Shown here: positions 4,562-58,448 of the stretch, piece after piece
How the letters are laid out: each line of letters begins with the position of its first letter
Position numbering within the stretch: the stretch's first letter is position 1
Source: Octopus vulgaris
Taxonomy: Eukaryota
DNA length: 64,000 bases
Assembly: GCA_951406725.2 (NCBI GenBank)
Contig: OX597821.1
Coordinates: 5,704,001 to 5,768,000, forward strand
Reading direction: 5' to 3'
Program-made: the position numbers and the translations under genes
Notes under the pieces: generated by a model
Databases searched by the model: none
Told to the model about the DNA's origin: nothing
What the model saw: the letters and a program-made list of their open reading frames with translations, nothing else

Positions 4562-4616
4562 TACCCGCTGATGAGAACTTCGCCTAGCAAATTATTTTTT
4601 TGAAAGTTCGAAACCA
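4562..4616 (+). ncRNA. Truncated hammerhead motif (core + stem II + GAAA; 3' half replaced by (TA)n)
   Basis: CTGATGA(4568-4574)-GAACTT...AAGTTC-GAAA(4610-4613); same stem II base as the 38403 HHR. Confidence 0.5.
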
Positions 4617-4792: not shown

Positions 4793-4899
4793 ACAGAAAA
4801 GAGGAATTTCGGTTGTCCCCACGTGGTGGATTGTAATGTATATAAGAAATTAAAAAAGAAAATACGCACACTTACATGGTTATAATATAATTTTCAATG

Positions 4900-4932
4900 T
4901 ATCGACCGGTTTCGCAACCGCTATTCATGATA
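4900..4932 (-). ncRNA. Minimal hammerhead, A3-U8 core variant, in the PLE 3' pLTR
   Basis: UAUC-AUGAAUA-GC(GGUU)GC-GAAA-CCGG-UC-GAUA; palindromic stem III ACCGGU, GUC site. Confidence 0.65.
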
Positions 4933-6715
4933 TAATGTTTAATTTATATGAATATATATTTTTTCGTAAGAAGAAATTTGGTCCATATTGTTTGTATTGA
5001 AATTCACGAGTGAATGACTTTATAAGTTGACAAGTAAAGGGAGGTAATTGGTTGTTATTGTTGTTATTGTTGTGTGTAAGGGAGATAACTGTTTAGGTTT
5101 TGGGTGGGGAATAAATATGTGTACAGAAAGGAGACAGGTTTAAAAAAAGGGACCTTGTTTAGCAGGGGATTTATGTACAGTGATGTAATATGTAAAAATA
5201 TAAAAGTTGGTTATGCGTGCATATTAAGTTGCGTTTTGTATCTTTCAATGAAAAAAGTTTCTTTATTTAAGCGTTCTAGTTGGGAGATTGTGTCTTTGCA
5301 CTGGTAGAAAGGAAAGACTGTAAAATTTGGTTTGATGTTACCTGCACATTTTTCTATGTGTTCACTAAGAGGAATTTGTCTGTATTGCGGGAAACGGATT
5401 TGCTCCTTATGCAGAGTGATTCTCTTCCTCAAAGTTAAACTCGTTTGTTCAATGTACTGATGACTGAAACCCGAGCAGGTTATTACATAAATTAGGTTCT
5501 CAGAGGCACAGGTGAAATTAGTTTTAATTGTGAACCTCTGTCCTTGTTTGAAAAGGAAATCCGAGCCTTCAAGCAGATTGGGGCAGGTTCCATAGTTCGG
5601 GCGTCCACATTTTTCAACCGTTGGTTTCGTTGTTGTTTTGTAAAGCTTCGCATTTGTTAGTAGTCTCTTTAGCGATTTGTCTTGTTTTTTGCATTTGATG
5701 AGTTTGTGTGTTTTCAGGATGTCGTTCATTTTTGGATGTCTAGTTAGTAAAGGGGGAGTTTGCACAATAGTGTTGAATGCCTCACTGTTTCTGGGGTTGT
5801 GTGTTGATATAAAAAGAAAATTTTTTGGTTTGAGGTGTGGTGCTATGGTTTTTTGTTCTTAGTGTTTTTGTGTCTAATTGTTTGGCACGTTTAATTCCCT
5901 CGTCGATAAGAGAGGGTGGATATTGTCTTTCAATAAGTGTTGTTTTAAGGTCTTGATGACGAAGGTTCCAAGTTGTTCTATCAGATACTATTGTGCAGAT
6001 CCTTTTTGGCTAAGTTAAAAGGGATGTTTATTTTTATGTGTTTCGGATGGCATGAGTTAAAAAGAAGATATTGTTTTGAATCAGTTGGTTTATAATAAAT
6101 GTCAGTTATGATTTCATTAAATTTAATTTATCATGATGTCTAAAAATGGAAGTTGTTCTTTATTATATTCCATTGTGAATTGAATGTTACTATTTATGTC
6201 ATTTAGTGTTGTTTTGAAATCCAAAAGTTTGCCGATGTTCTCCTTCCAGATGATAAAACAGTCATCCAGGTATCGCTTCCAATTTTCTCTTATGTAGAGG
6301 TAAAATGGGTAACCATATTTCTGAAGTGATACTTCATATAAGGTGAATTCAAAATAATCCATTATTAGGCTCGTAAGAACAGGAGCTGCTTTCGTCCCCA
6401 TCGCAATTCCGCATTTCTGACGATAGTATGTGTCATCAAATAGGAAATAATTGTTCTGAAGTATAAATTTTAAGGATTCAATAATAAAGATCTGGTTTAT
6501 GCGTTCCGGGAGGACTTCGGGGTACTTTTCCAAACAGAATTTAATTGCTTTTATTCCATAGTCATGGGAGATGTTGGTGTAAAGATTGATAACATCGAGG
6601 GTGACCAATACTGCCTCTTCATTAGTCGTTTTTGGTAGGTGTTCTAACATGTCTAAATGAAGCTTTTGATGTATTTCAGCGAGGGTTTCAGTAAGATGTC
6701 TAAAAAATTGCTCAT

Positions 6716-6752
6716 TATATCATGAATAGCGATTGCGAAACCGGTCAATATA
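6716..6752 (+). ncRNA. Second (inverted pLTR) copy of the A3-U8 hammerhead variant
   Basis: TATC-ATGAATA-GC(GATT)GC-GAAA-CCGG-TC-AATA; first stem I pair mismatched. Confidence 0.55.
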
Positions 6753-7279
6753 TTAAAAATTATATTAAAACCATGTAAGTGTGCGTATTTTCCTTTTTTA
6801 ATTTCTTATATATATATACATATTGTTCTGGAAGTGTAGAAAGAGTTTTAGACAATCTACTCTCGCGGATTATATAAGTAAGATCGAAATTTTTCAGGTT
6901 TAGAAAACCTAGCTGTAAAACCGTTGTGTGGGTTTAGCAAAGAGTAAAATACAATCCAGATAAGAAGACAAAGAAATATTTTATCCCATCTTCATTGACC
7001 AATTGCAATTGTTTCTGTAGCAACTCCTTTTTCAACACCAATTTACGCAAAAGATCATGTGGAGACTTATGTAATATTTGCGATTTTAAACGTTGGAGTG
7101 ACGCTTTGTCAGACTTGTATCATAGGTGAACTCTTATGTCATACGTTTGCCAAGCTTTGAGTTTTGCTGGTATCGGGAGGAAACAAAAGGTGTAAATAAA
7201 CTTACGAATGAAAAAAATTATGATACGACGGGCAGAGCAAAAATAAAATTGATACCAAAGCTGGTTAAAAAAAATATGG

Positions 7280-38384: not shown

Positions 38385-38710
38385 GTTGGCCCTGGTCAGT
38401 ATTACTCACTGATGAGAACTAAGTGATCGTTCTCAAAGTTCGAAATCACTGTGATATGGGTATGTCTGATTTTCATTTTCGATTCTTTTCGTCTATGCTA
38501 CGGGAGTCTTAAAATTTTACTGCTCGTTCCCTCGATTTCGTCCCTGTGCATAACTGAAAACTGTGGGTGAGTCGTTTTGACTGGTATTTTTATGATGCTG
38601 GGGCTACAAGTAGCACGCTTCATTATTAATTGATAATTTTACTATTATGGTTCTTTTACACATGCTGGCCACTAATATTATTGTAAATTATTAACAATAT
38701 CCTTATATAC
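38385..38710 (+). mobile_element. Non-coding HHR-bearing repeat unit, copy 2
   Basis: Homologous to 36541-36898 in circularly permuted order. Confidence 0.7.
38403..38462 (+). ncRNA. Complete type-I hammerhead ribozyme motif
   Basis: TACTCA-CTGATGA-GAACT(16 nt)AGTTC-GAAA-TCAC-T-GTGA-TA-TGGGTA; stems I (6 bp), II (5 bp) and III all pair; AUA site after 38456. Confidence 0.85.
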
Positions 38711-40667: not shown

Positions 40668-41718
40668 CATTGGGTTGTCCGGAAAGTTCGTGCCGATTTT
40701 TAAAGGAAAGAAAAAGGTCAATGAATACTTGCCATTACATTTTTAATCAACCAAATATGAACCATCTTGTTGCACAATGCGTCTCCATCTTTCCTTTAAC
40801 TTGAAAATACCCTCTTCCCAGAATCGAGGTGGTTTCATGGCAAAGAATTCATCAAAGTATCTTTTTACGTCATCCAAGTCATTGAAATTCTTATCATTAA
40901 CACTATTAAGACCATTCTGCAGAACCTGAATAAGTGGAAATCTGAAGGAGCAAGATCTGGTGAATAGGGAGAATTGAGTAACACATCCCTGCCGAGCTTC
41001 AGCAATTTTTGTCTGGTTCTCAAAGAAACGTGCGGTCTTGCATTATCATGGTGGAAAACAACACCCTTCCTGTTGGCCAATTCTTGACATTTCTCTTGAA
41101 TTGCTGCTTTTAACTCTTCCAGTTGTGTGCAGTATTTCTCAGAATCAATTGTCTGGTTACTTGGGAGAAGCTCATAGTACAGAATTCCTTTCCAATCCCA
41201 CCAGATACAAAGCAAAATTTTTTAGGGAGAAGACCCGCTTGTGGGGTGGTTAAGGGTGGCTCATGTCGCTTACTCCAGGATCGCTTTCTCTGAACATTTC
41301 GGTAGACATTCCATTTCTCATCACCTGTCATAATTTGCTTTAAAAAAGGTGCGTTTTCATTCCGTTTATAAAGCGAATCACAGATGGAAATGCGATCCAA
41401 AAGGTTCTTCTCACTCAACTCATGTGGTACCCAAACATCGTAGCGAGTTGTGTACCCAAGCTTTACCAGGTGCTCATGAACGACGGATTTTGATAGGTTG
41501 AGGCTTTCTGCCAATTCTCAGGTTGTGCAATGTAGTTGAACAATGACTTAGTGGATGGTCTGTCTGATCGCTCTTTATCAATAAGGCTACAATCTCCAGC
41601 TCGGAACCTTGCGAACCACTTCCGTGCAGTTCTTTCGGATAAAGAAGCATCACTGTAAACTGCGCATATTTCTTTGGTTGCTTGTGAGGCATTTTTCCCT
41701 TTACGGAAAAAGAAATTT
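40668..41718 (-). mobile_element. mariner (DD34D) transposon, frameshifted, one TIR, 5' end truncated
   Basis: WVPHELSEKN, MTGDEKW, HHDNARPH, SPYSPDLAPSDFHLF; TIR TTGGGTTGTCCGGAAAGTTCGTGCCG next to TA repeats. Confidence 0.92.
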
Positions 41719-42572
41719 CCCGTGCTACCGATATAGTCTTTCTGGCAGCCCGAGCATCTGATTACGTAGATCAGATCTTCGGATGAACAAGTGAAATTTG
41801 ATTTAATTGTAAAGTGTTGCCTTTGTTTAAAATTGCTTTCTGATCTTGCAAATGGTTGGGGCATGTAACATTTTGGGGTGATTACATTTTTTTGGCTTTG
41901 GAACTTGTGGAGGGGAATAATTTTGCATTAGTTAGCAGTTGTTTTAATGACTCAGGTTGTTTGTTGATTTTGACAATTTTAATGTCGCGTAAAATTATTT
42001 TTAGTTTTGGGTCCTTGTGTAGTATTGGCAGGTTTTGTATGATTGTTCTGAATGCTTCTTTGTTTCTGGGGTTGTCTGTGTTGTATATGTAGGGTAGTGT
42101 TTTAAGAAGAGTTTTGTTAATGTCTTTGGTTTTTCTTAATGTCTCCAGGTTGATAGATTTGGCACGTTTTATTCCTTCATTAATGAGTTGGATTGGGTAG
42201 CATCTATCCAGGAGGGCGTTTTTCACTTCTTGTAGTCTTAAATCTCTAGTTTTTTTTCTCTCATATTAACTTATTGATTCTTCTCTTCCTGCAAGTTTGA
42301 AGGGGATGTTTGTTTTTGTGTGTCTAGGATGGCAAGAGCTAAAGAAAAGGTATTGTTTTGCATCTGTTGTTTTATAAAATATGTCTATTTCGATTTTGTT
42401 GTTGTTTGTTTTTTTAATTAGATGCCTAGGAATAGAAGTGTCTGCTGGTTGTATTCCATTGTGGATTGAATGCTTGTGTGGATGCTGTTCAGAAGTGTTT
42501 TAAATTCTAGGAGTTTGTTTAAGTTGTTATTCCAGAGTATGAAACAGTCATCCAGGAATCTCTTCCGATTCA
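41719..42572 (-). mobile_element. Penelope-like element fragment (RT C-terminus to GIY-YIG N-terminus)
   Basis: RRFLDDCF, YKTTDAKQYLFFSSCHPRHTKTNIPF, YPIQLINEGIKRAK, DLIYVIRCSGCQKDYIGST; same family type as 5211-6650. Confidence 0.88.
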
Positions 42573-48296: not shown

Positions 48297-48351
48297 TATA
48301 TATATGTATGTATGTGTATATATATATATATATATGTCATAATTTAGGCTA

Positions 48352-49095
48352 GTCACATATTTCAACTGCTAAAGGCAAATACACTGCAGTTACCGTGCAG
48401 AAAAATCTTTCTTATGGTAAAAAGGTGTGAAAACACCCAGTTCGTTCAGTGTCGCCATCTCTCGGGAATCTCAGACAACGATGTTTCGGGATTATTGACT
48501 CTTGTCGATGAGATATACCAAAGAGAGACAACTCTGAACGAACTAAATAAAACTTGTAGCTTTATATATAATTCAGTCAACATGTTGCCTGATCTGCCCT
48601 AATAGATCGCCCGATTGAAATGAATAACAAAGTAAAGGTGCAGTTGGTTCAGACAAATATATTTCAACTAACCTAAATTCCGAATATACGTAAACACTGC
48701 TTTGCGCCATTACTTCGTTATTTATTTCGATCGGTCAATCTACTAGAGCAAATCAACATGTTGACTGAATTATATATAAAGCTACATGCTTTATTTAGTT
48801 CGTTCAGAGTTGTCTCTCTTAGTTACAGCTCATTGACAAAAGTCAATAAACTCGAAACATCGATGTTTAAGATTCTCGAGAGATGACAACACTGAACGAA
48901 TTGGGTGTTTTCATACTTTTTTAACATAAGAGAGATTTTTCTCCACAGTAACTGCAGTATACTTGCCTTTAGCAGTTGAAATATGTGATAAACATATTTC
49001 AAAAAACCTAAATTGGTGCTATACGTAGACACTGCTTTGCACCATTACTTCGTTATATATATATATATTTCAACTTACCTAATTCTGCGAAGATA
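48352..49095. mobile_element. Non-coding fold-back element: ~290-bp inverted arms plus partial tandem repeat (~337-bp unit), U3-A8 hammerhead variant in each arm
   Basis: 48352-48642 vs 48702-48989 inverted; 48655-48720 repeated directly at 48991-49056; HHR-like motifs at 48470-48512(-) and 48829-48871(+). Confidence 0.8.
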
Positions 49096-49111: not shown

Positions 49112-49150
<39 letters not shown>

Positions 49151-49206
49151 ACATGATATATCCATACGTACATACTCCAAATGTGAATATGTCTGTGTTA
49201 ACTACA

Positions 49207-49920
49207 GTGACGCTCTTGTAATCCATTGGTCTAACCGCATGTGTAGTCTCTGTCATGTTTCTCTGGAAGACATCGCGCATATGATTAACAAGTGTTCTAA
49301 AATGTCGTCACGGTACTACCTCCCTATGTGGCACGATGTTGTTGCTAAAGTACAATGCCATCTGCAAAAAAGACTGTCCTCAAATAATCTTAGAATATCC
49401 ATCCCTGTAATGGAATACATTCATAAACACCAACTCAAGGAAAACTGGTGGAATATTCCCATCAAAACTTCTGTCAAATGTAAACATAACAGGCCAGATA
49501 TTGTTCTTTGGAACAGAGGGGCAAAAGTATATGCCGTCATAGAGGTCAGCTGCCATGCAGTTATAAATATCTCTTTTAAAATCCAAGGAAAAGAGGATAT
49601 CTATGGACAACTGCTTCGAAACTGCCAGCTTCTATATTGAGACTATAAATTCATATTTATACCAATAACAATTGGAGCGCTAAATTTTGTTAGTAAATGC
49701 TTAAAGGAAAATCTGGATCACCTGGGATTTTCAGAAAAAGAAATTGACCGGCTGATTCATATATTAAAAGTGCAATCTGTGAGCGGAACAGTAAAAATAT
49801 TCAAGATTTTTCCAAATGTGAATTTGTCTGTGTTAACTACATCCCAAAGATAGAGCTTTGTATCTTTGTTGGAAACCAGCTCCCTCCTCAGTGGAAGATT
49901 TGTAATAATTAAAAAATAGA
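49207..49920 (+). mobile_element. R4/Dong-like RLE LINE 3' fragment
   Basis: CSLCHVSLEDIAHMINKC (CCHC), HDVVAK, WWNIPIKT..KHNRPDIVLW..VIEVSC (RLE PD..E motif). Confidence 0.82.
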
Positions 49921-56614: not shown

Positions 56615-58448
56615 TTTATTTAAAGCAGCAGAAAATTCAACAAAATCTGTTACTCTGAGTTTCTCGTTGCCGTTCATCAGACAGTTTTTGCTAGAATGGA
56701 ACCGATATATCAATTCAATCTAGACTCTTACAAACGCTACACCTTTAAAAAGAAATGGACTTGTTTGATTGGCCCTTTAGAAAAAACGGTCAATCTTCGA
56801 GCGATAAACAAAAAGGTCAAAAATATATGTATATATATATAAAAACTTATAAAAATTATAAAATTCGAGGAAAAAACCTTACATTGAATAAAATACATAA
56901 TGACATTAATGAAGAAAGTATAATTAAAGCTTAGAAATTAAACCTATTATAAATATTACACTGCAATACATATTTAAGTTAAAGCGTACATATATATATC
57001 AACATACACAGAAGGATGCGTGCAAAACGCCATACATATACAGACGTATAAATATAAATCTGAAATATACACATAAATGCATGCGTATATATATTTACAC
57101 AATCCATCTCGCACGCAATTTAAAATCATCTATGTAGCGATTCTCATATACTGAGTAAGGGAGGGCGAAAGAAAGGAAGAGAGAGAAAAAGGAACGAAGA
57201 AAGGGGAAGGAAAAAAGAAAAAAGAAAAGGAGGGGTGGGGAAAAAAACGAAATAAGAAAAAATTATGTATAAAAGCTATGTAACGGCATTATTGACATGT
57301 ATGGAGACATGTATACAAATACACAAGCTCGAATGGATACATACACATACAGTCGTGTATATGTGTGCTTAAGCACAAACATACGTCCACTTACACATAC
57401 ACAGATACGCATGCTTACAAATACATATCCATGGCTATACACATACTTATATAAAAATTCTAATTTTTGACAACATTGCTTTTTTTAAAGAAATGGGTGC
57501 AATAATAAAAAATATAAGACATATAAAATAAAATATAACACCCTATTTTGGATCATCTATAAAAAATCAAGGTAATCCTATACAATACAATAACTTGAAA
57601 TAAAAAGTCGGAGGTTTTTCCTAATGTATATGTCGAAACATAAGACTTTGCTATACGGATTAAAATCTGTATAACGCGGAACAAAATCAATTGTAGCGCT
57701 CACAGCTCAAGAGTCAAAATCAAAATTTCAAAAATCAAAAATACAAAATATATACTCTATCCATATGGTATATTTATATTCGACATTTTAAATTTAGCCG
57801 CGTGCCTACATAAGTTCATGAGCTCACTTCTTTGATTCAAAGAATTATTGTCTTTGAATAAGATGTACATTTTTTCTAATAGACAAAGTTTGCACTTGAA
57901 ATTATTTTTGTATGCTCCATGCCTGTATGGTGCCGCCCTGTCCAGAATGCGTTGAAAGGTGGGGTTTCCTTTTCTTTTAGTTCCCAGACATATTTTGCTA
58001 GGCTGGTCCTCTTCCTATTCTCTGGGTATTTAAATGAATCTTTATGAGAATAAAATCTTGTTTTAAATGAATTCTCTGAAGCCCCTGTGTATGTCTTGTA
58101 TTACGATGAGCCTTCTACTTGCACCTTGGCTTTATAAACTACTCCTTTCACTAGACATTTCCCTTCTAACGGACAGGAGCTTTCGTTTTTGAAATTGCAT
58201 TTCTTAATGGGCTCGGCACCATGTCTAATCTCAATTAGCTTTCTATTATGCTGGCTAATGTAAGAGGCAAAATTTCTGCAACAAGAATAGCTAACCTTCA
58301 GGGTTCTTCTATTAAATATCCTATAGAATTTATGACCCTGCTTAAAATGCTTAGAGACTAATCTCAAAAATTCCTTACCTGTATTAGTCTTTACGGCCAA
58401 ATTGAAAGCCGGGTTGAACCACAAAACTTTCCTGGTCCTAGTTTTTCA
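56612..58448 (-). mobile_element. Penelope-like element 3' end (GIY-YIG region plus long 3' UTR)
   Basis: WFNPAFNLAVKTNTGKEFL..IFNRRTLKVSYSC..CPLEGKCLVKGVVYKAKV, then YTGASENSFKTRFYSHK, CKLCLLEK, LNQRSELMNLCRH. Confidence 0.85.
56641..56690 (-). ncRNA. Type-I hammerhead motif at the PLE 3' end
   Basis: CAAAAACUGU-CUGAUGA-ACG(GCAA)CGA-GAAA-CUC-A-GAG-UA-ACAGAUUUUG; 9/10-bp stem I, GUA site. Confidence 0.8.

Follow-up and report, generated by a model that had tools for sequence, protein, structure and literature searches.

Insertions of Penelope-like elements have a characteristic layout, described in the accessible text of two studies (PMC8557442; PMC3846280) as a partial tandem, an adjacent head-to-head inverted 5'-truncated copy, a tail of 30-40 bp and a bias toward microsatellites. 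According to the available part of a third study, a Poseidon protein cuts AT-rich DNA and starts reverse transcription at two internal sites, which makes the tail, and it inserts RNA with or without ribozyme cleavage (PMC11167929). In Mytilus, non-LTR retrozymes that measure 350-390 bp and have circular RNA forms have been described (PMC7229834, as far as its open text goes). In the accessible sections of a recent report, an origin of retrozymes from Penelope-like repeats is argued, and the link between the two has so far been drawn mainly from co-occurrence and sequence trees (10.64898/2026.07.22.740005). Hammerhead cores with a U3-A8 pair are known in Schistosoma Penelope-like elements (PMC4209133) and among natural hammerheads generally (PMC3088659), both sources being available in part.

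Here, we describe a locus in a 64-kb stretch of Octopus vulgaris DNA (the whole stretch that was analyzed, referred to below as the window). The window is animal DNA rich in microsatellites and repeats. The locus is probably a decayed insertion of an abundant, protein-free type I hammerhead repeat of 335-340 nt that resembles non-LTR retrozymes and was copied into a TA microsatellite by a Penelope-like reverse transcriptase with a GIY-YIG endonuclease acting in trans. Its parts are as follows, with positions in the repeat unit counted from +1 at the unit start.

48336-48352, - strand: tail (3' extension) of the inverted copy, corresponding to about +18 to +33 of the unit after a 14-nt deletion of one hairpin arm and ending in (TA)n, from alignment to 48956-49040 and other unit starts
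48353-48642, - strand: inverted 5'-truncated unit copy, head-to-head with the central copy and equivalent to 48703-48988
48468-48514, - strand: hammerhead motif of the left arm, with C at core position 4 and two mismatches in stem II
48643-48651, no strand: inversion junction, 9 bases of unclear origin that are absent from related contigs
48652-48986, + strand: full 335-nt unit, 33% GC, with a largest ATG frame of at most 45 codons
48792-48907, + strand: interrupted 30-bp stem prolonging hammerhead stem I, from folding z scores and the pairing of both arms
48827-48873, + strand: type I hammerhead motif of the right arm, from a descriptor on the combined arms and the majority letters of related contigs
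48968-49012, + strand: hairpin across the head-to-tail junction, with an 11-bp stem, a 5-nt loop (48987-48991) and 5 more pairs; the deepest-covered part of the family
48987-49056, + strand: start of a second unit, 70 nt, direct (3' extension), ending in a TA run
49062-49091, + strand: third short unit-start piece, about +5 to +33, ending in (TA)n

Read along the + strand, the locus consists of (TA)n, the inverted copy with its tail (48336-48642), 9 bases, the full unit (48652-48986), the second unit start (48987-49056), a short TA run, the third piece (49062-49091) and again (TA)n. The inverted arms pair without a gap over 235 nt (48353-48587 with 48754-48988) at 89% complementarity (210/235), and a single 4-nt gap extends them to 48353-48642 and 48703-48988, which agrees with the diverged arms of about 290 bp recognized in a first-pass annotation made from the sequence. 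The left arm goes on outward to about 48336 as more of the unit start, with the 14-nt deletion. In the inverted copy the first 50 bases of the unit are missing, and the outer end of this copy crosses the unit junction into about 17 bases more. The locus is thus bounded on either side by a 3' end, with the 5' ends turned toward each other inside. An inverted 5'-truncated copy placed head-to-head with a partial tandem, a tail of 30-40 nt and an AT-rich or microsatellite target are all present, which is the layout given for Penelope-like insertions in the accessible text of PMC8557442 and PMC3846280 and bears out the Penelope-type inverted 5' copy proposed in that annotation. The direct repeat and its third piece also lie where they had been placed: 48652-48725 recurs at 48987-49060 with 84% identity, and a further unit start lies at about 49062-49091. 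The proposed period of about 337 bp did not stand, since the spacing is 335 in this copy, and near 48752 there are 4 additional bases in the left arm and in some related contigs; 335-340 is a fair range for the period of the family. The three 3' ends at the locus fall at about +33, +33 and +70, each running into a TA run. Because both ends of the locus lie in TA runs, a target-site duplication is unreadable. A search for further unit copies within the 64-kb window found none.

The unit contains no coding frame, with no ATG frame of more than 45 codons and no frame for a reverse transcriptase and GIY-YIG endonuclease. It is predicted to fold strongly, both as a linear molecule (z -5.9) and as a circle (z -5.4). 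Its two ends pair with each other along about 45 nt, in the manner of imperfect terminal inverted repeats, and the 11-bp stem of the junction hairpin has a z score of -4.6. The unit thus shares with non-LTR retrozymes its lack of coding capacity, a length within 150-450 bp, low GC and self-pairing.

Part of the stretch was found in 20 of 24 sequencing runs, and half of it in none; no RNA run containing it was among the 24 listed. Contigs from four runs were aligned to 48630-49062 at 80% likeness. Three DNA runs with three organism labels yielded 957, 1108 and 1103 matching contigs, and the fourth run (X20), which was guessed to be RNA and may be DNA, yielded 43 contigs at low depth and says nothing on expression. 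Depth is the summed depth of contigs, is biased to the reference and does not represent copy number, and the majority letters reported below are unphased. Joints, loose ends and the like are those among the items listed, which comprised 40 of 131 variant rows, 15 of 100 joints, 12 of 53 joint inserts, 24 of 701 loose ends and 32 of 3502 contig pieces. Exact pattern scans of metagenome contigs and viral contigs gave 0 matches.

Head-to-tail joining is seen at this locus and in related copies. Eight of the nine go-back joints among those listed give a period of 333-338, and one gives 276. Position 48989, just beyond the inverted terminus, is a single letter in 95-96% of the depth, and the next bin retains 56-61%, indicating that copies run through the unit junction; listed loose ends at 49002-49015 in the DNA runs carry on into the unit start. 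The earlier description of a non-coding unit, joined head-to-tail in other copies, is therefore upheld at a length of about 335-340 nt. Two or more consecutive units with complete hammerheads, by which retrozymes count as active in 10.64898/2026.07.22.740005, are absent at this locus, and no contig piece among the 32 of 3502 listed spans two units. Depth is highest over the junction hairpin (59-99 thousand) and drops from 16-26 thousand at +9 to +23 to 2-2.5 thousand at +69 to +83. The fall across +38 to +83 fits 3' ends in this region, and the three 3' ends of the locus match it, as does one loose end in X20 that likewise breaks off at +70, ahead of a microsatellite. The trough at +69 to +100 is due in part to the 4-nt deletion in the reference. 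Judged by depth over the unit, most copies seem not to reach the length of one unit plus tail.

The fold-back itself is particular to this locus, as its junction had a depth of 0 at 48630-48644 in four of four runs, and with this absence the locus is without confirmation by independent reads. The four strand-change joints listed all differ between contigs, and one of them again starts at 48659. A fold-back created during assembly would be in keeping with the lack of the junction (48630-48651) from the four runs and with the finding that no run contains half of the sampled words. Against this, the two arms disagree at 25 of 235 positions, besides the 4-nt gap, and the left arm carries the family majority letter at 13 of these positions, from which it follows that the arms are two separately aged copies; we therefore consider an assembly artefact hardly credible.

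A type I hammerhead descriptor was passed by neither arm alone. When letters were accepted from either arm, column by column, one descriptor match was obtained, at 48833 on the + strand, at all four descriptor settings, with none on the other strand. Shuffling the columns produced 1, 0, 2 and 0 matches per 5000 at the four settings, a rate that applies to these columns and not to a scan of 64 kb. The hammerhead motif is beyond chance. It has a 6-bp stem I, the core UUGACAA with a U3-A8 pair, a 4-bp stem II with a 6-nt loop, closed by G10.1-C11.1, then GAAA, and a palindromic stem III, CAUCGAUG, in the combined motif. The cut site is predicted between 48867 and 48868. The order of a type I hammerhead (core 3-9, G12-A14, A15.1-U16.1, H17 and stems I-III) is present in the two arms jointly and in neither singly. 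The right arm is damaged at 48828, 48840 and 48869 and has U in place of C at 48867. At these four positions the majority letters of related contigs complete the motif (95-97% of depth at 48828, 84-91% at 48840, 89-91% at 48867 and 82-91% at 48869), and the reconstruction from the two arms thus agrees with the family. The complete U3-A8 hammerhead with palindromic stem III that the first-pass annotation had assembled from the two arms is therefore sustained. Rfam at the gathering score gave 0 hammerhead matches in the whole window, and none was among 33 matches at E up to 10; each arm carries damage, and the core is of a variant type.

Stem I is prolonged by an interrupted 30-bp stem with z scores of -7.2 and -6.0 for the two arms, in which 59 of 60 cells are paired across the arms. 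No compensatory changes were seen in stems I-III between the two arms. A two-sided change was seen only in the prolonging stem, at the pair 48813:48886, which from unphased majority letters is C-G (70-79% and 79-90% of depth); the right arm has U-A there and the left arm U-G. Among the listed variant rows, pairing is kept at seven of eight variable stem positions, several as G-U, and is broken at 48796, near the end. The motif also has a competing fold, a 6-bp hairpin of 48832-48837 with 48842-48847 that is the minimum free energy form of the right arm and is built from the U3-C7-A8 core and the stem II loop. A C at position 4 breaks one pair of this competing hairpin and lets 48831-48836 pair with the stem III palindrome. 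The locus carries a dead hammerhead copy, and self-cleavage of the motif is a prediction from the reconstructed structure.

The palindromes of the unit could also belong to a non-autonomous element that moves as DNA, such as a MITE, a fold-back or a Helitron-type element, and resemble a hammerhead by chance or capture. Such an element could have inverted unit ends like those seen here, which are imperfect over about 45 nt with a perfect 12-nt core, as well as the many short palindromes, the hairpin shortly upstream of the 3' ends and the folding back of the whole locus as DNA. The 5 bases between units are fixed, whereas a target duplication would vary, other copies do not share the long fold-back junction, the stems keep G-U pairs, and all hammerhead core bases are present at the right spacing, which makes a DNA-level element very unlikely. 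Fixed MITE termini without conservation of the stems, named in the first-pass annotation as the pattern contrary to its reading, were not found: sequence continues past the inverted terminus at 48989, and the majority letters complete the stems.

In the origin that we favor, an RNA longer than one unit would be transcribed, with a 5' end lying at the junction hairpin or close to it. A Penelope protein would nick AT-rich DNA, and cDNA synthesis would begin inside the RNA, about 30 or 70 nt beyond the junction hairpin, so that internal priming would leave the short 3' extensions. The cDNA would pass the uncut ribozyme site and reach the hairpin loop, a second priming on the opposite strand would add the inverted 5'-truncated copy, and each arm would then have decayed on its own, by about 4-6%. 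The ribozyme would work on surplus transcripts, in dimeric form because the palindromic stem III is weak, and would probably be dispensable for insertion. No insertion end lies at the ribozyme cut site, which points to uncut RNA longer than one unit as the likely insertion template; a circle is possible and unneeded.

Circular RNA is the main rival to a linear uncut template. In size, low GC and strong self-pairing the unit resembles the mussel and coral retrozymes in the available part of PMC7229834, and its helix sizes are those of the canonical metazoan hammerheads that work as dimers, in the accessible text of PMC4209133. The cDNA spans both the cut site and the unit junction, as a circle would permit. 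However, a circle does not predict 5' ends at the junction hairpin, of which there are two here and one at a joint in related contigs, unless the hairpin stops the enzyme; these ends suit a circle no better than a linear template longer than one unit. In addition, no contig piece among those listed (32/3502) holds two ribozymes, the depth profile suggests mostly shorter copies, and of 9 retrozyme dimers from Xenopus, just 1 showed cleavage in vitro (10.64898/2026.07.22.740005, from its open sections). We consider a circular template possible, though somewhat doubtful.

Alternatively, the pieces could come from an autonomous Penelope-like element and represent 5'-truncated copies of its terminal repeat, with no independent ORF-free unit. 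Most Penelope-like elements are 5'-truncated, leaving single ribozymes or opposite-strand ribozymes 100-700 bp apart (PMC4209133, accessible text), and the depth trough at +70 to +100 could mark the position of the ORF in the parent element. This is unlikely, given that contigs cover the unit start and the ribozyme without interruption (for example, 48659-48875, 48660-48875 and 48655-48865), that listed loose ends at 48753 proceed in the unit's own sequence, and that the unit has no coding frame. The window has remnants with a reverse transcriptase domain and a sub-threshold GIY-YIG match, one of them with its own inverted 5' copy. No similarity was detected between the unit and the 3' regions of the Penelope-like remnants within the window, with best local scores of 18-25.

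One of these remnants, at 4795-6820 on the - strand, has a reverse transcriptase, a weak GIY-YIG match and an inverted 5' copy of its own 3' repeat, and from its linker motif we take it to be Neptune-type. Both copies of this repeat carry, near 4897-4932 (-) and 6717-6752 (+), minimal hammerhead-like motifs with A3/U8, a 2-bp stem II, a palindromic CCGG and GUC; their folding z scores of -0.3 and 0.2 lend nil support. No mention of an A3-U8 hammerhead core was found in the accessible text of the literature searched, and the motif is possibly more novel than the 335-nt unit, as a lead only. A second Penelope-like remnant (41466-42265, -) is split by a mariner transposon with an HTH_48 match. 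A minimal C3-G8 hammerhead at 56645-56684 (-) lies about 30 bases ahead of (TA)n, downstream of the frame 58104-58445 (-), which had no Pfam match and presumably resembles Penelope/Poseidon proteins. Motifs of the form CUGAUGA...GAAA with a GAAC/GUUC stem II and long loops occur at 4564-4615 (+), cut off by (TA)n, and at 38405-38455 (+), adjoining a transposase-like remnant, where the motif may be due to chance. Beside the locus, 49146-49841 holds a 3' LINE fragment with a restriction-like endonuclease motif, presumably R4/Dong-like; a 31-nt direct repeat frames it, with copies at 49176 and 49811. The LINE-like fragment (49146-49830) had no Pfam match and seems unrelated to the 335-nt unit. 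For a neighboring retroelement frame, the only named match among 10 was an Octopus bimaculoides protein, with 79% identity over 40% of the query.

Core position 4 of the hammerhead varies within the family. It is C in 33, 29 and 27% of the depth in the DNA runs (24-29 contigs per run), as in the left arm. We rejected C4 as an ancestral state lost via CpG decay, as this decay is too weak to make about 70% U. In three repeat segments of the window, transitions affect 12-13% of CpG positions compared to 10-11% of other C or G, and with CpG decay this weak, U4 and C4 are better read as sub-populations; they are probably two sub-populations of one family. In the accessible text of PMC3088659, U4C considerably lowers activity in vitro and still allows viroid infectivity, and in that of PMC9901934, a mutational scan found low activity for single changes in this turn of the core. 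Since a single family naturally contains U4 and C4 forms of one U3-A8 hammerhead, it lends itself to testing whether spreading depends on cleavage. A bolder and rather unlikely proposal is that this is a cephalopod retrozyme with the full Penelope signature, inserted from uncut RNA primed past the junction hairpin, in which the U3-C7-A8 core forms a built-in switch: the competing hairpin would keep RNA uncut for copying, and the C4 subfamily would break the hairpin and still cleave. If true, this would be direct structural evidence that Penelope enzymes move retrozymes.

In the literature searched, most subscription papers being outside its reach, no report of a cephalopod retrozyme was found. 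The main text of the O. vulgaris repeat annotation (PMC13282606) does not contain the words ribozyme or hammerhead, and its single supplement contains no ribozyme, retrozyme or pLTR, nor the one 14-base stretch of the unit that was looked for. The unit family may already be in the O. vulgaris repeat library under another label.

Compared to metazoan non-LTR retrozymes, as described in the accessible parts of PMC7229834 and 10.64898/2026.07.22.740005, and above all to the 350-390 bp Mytilus repeats, the octopus unit is alike in being an ORF-free unit of 150-450 bp with GC below 45% and one type I hammerhead, in its high self-pairing and in its head-to-tail junctions, and Penelope-like elements are the proposed means of mobilization for those retrozymes. 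It differs in the core, which is C3-G8 in those retrozymes and U3-A8 with a C4 sub-population here, and in that it occurs as dispersed, partial, inverted insertions, known so far from sequence, whereas metazoan retrozymes form long arrays. With the pLTR hammerhead of Schistosoma mansoni Cercyon, going by the open text of PMC4209133, the octopus motif shares the U3-A8 covariation, G10.1-C11.1, a palindromic helix III and opposite-strand pairs 100-700 bp apart. In contrast to Cercyon, its helix I has 6 bp, its helix II has 4 bp and position 9 is not followed by an additional base, which makes it canonical rather than minimal, and its stem I is prolonged by the 30-bp stem. Insertions of Penelope, Poseidon and Neptune, in the available text of PMC8557442, PMC3846280 and PMC11167929, share with this locus the head-to-head inverted 5'-truncated copy, the partial tandem, the tail of 30-40 nt, the AT-rich microsatellite target and the palindrome at the 5' junction. 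The octopus locus differs in its extensions of about 33 and 70 nt and in the lack of an ORF in its unit. Each feature of a Penelope-mobilized retrozyme is already in print; this locus reveals no new element class and likely adds a case of a known one. It likely brings cephalopods among the animals with retrozyme-like repeats, and it displays, at a single locus, the marks of insertion that mobilization of retrozymes by Penelope-like enzymes should leave.
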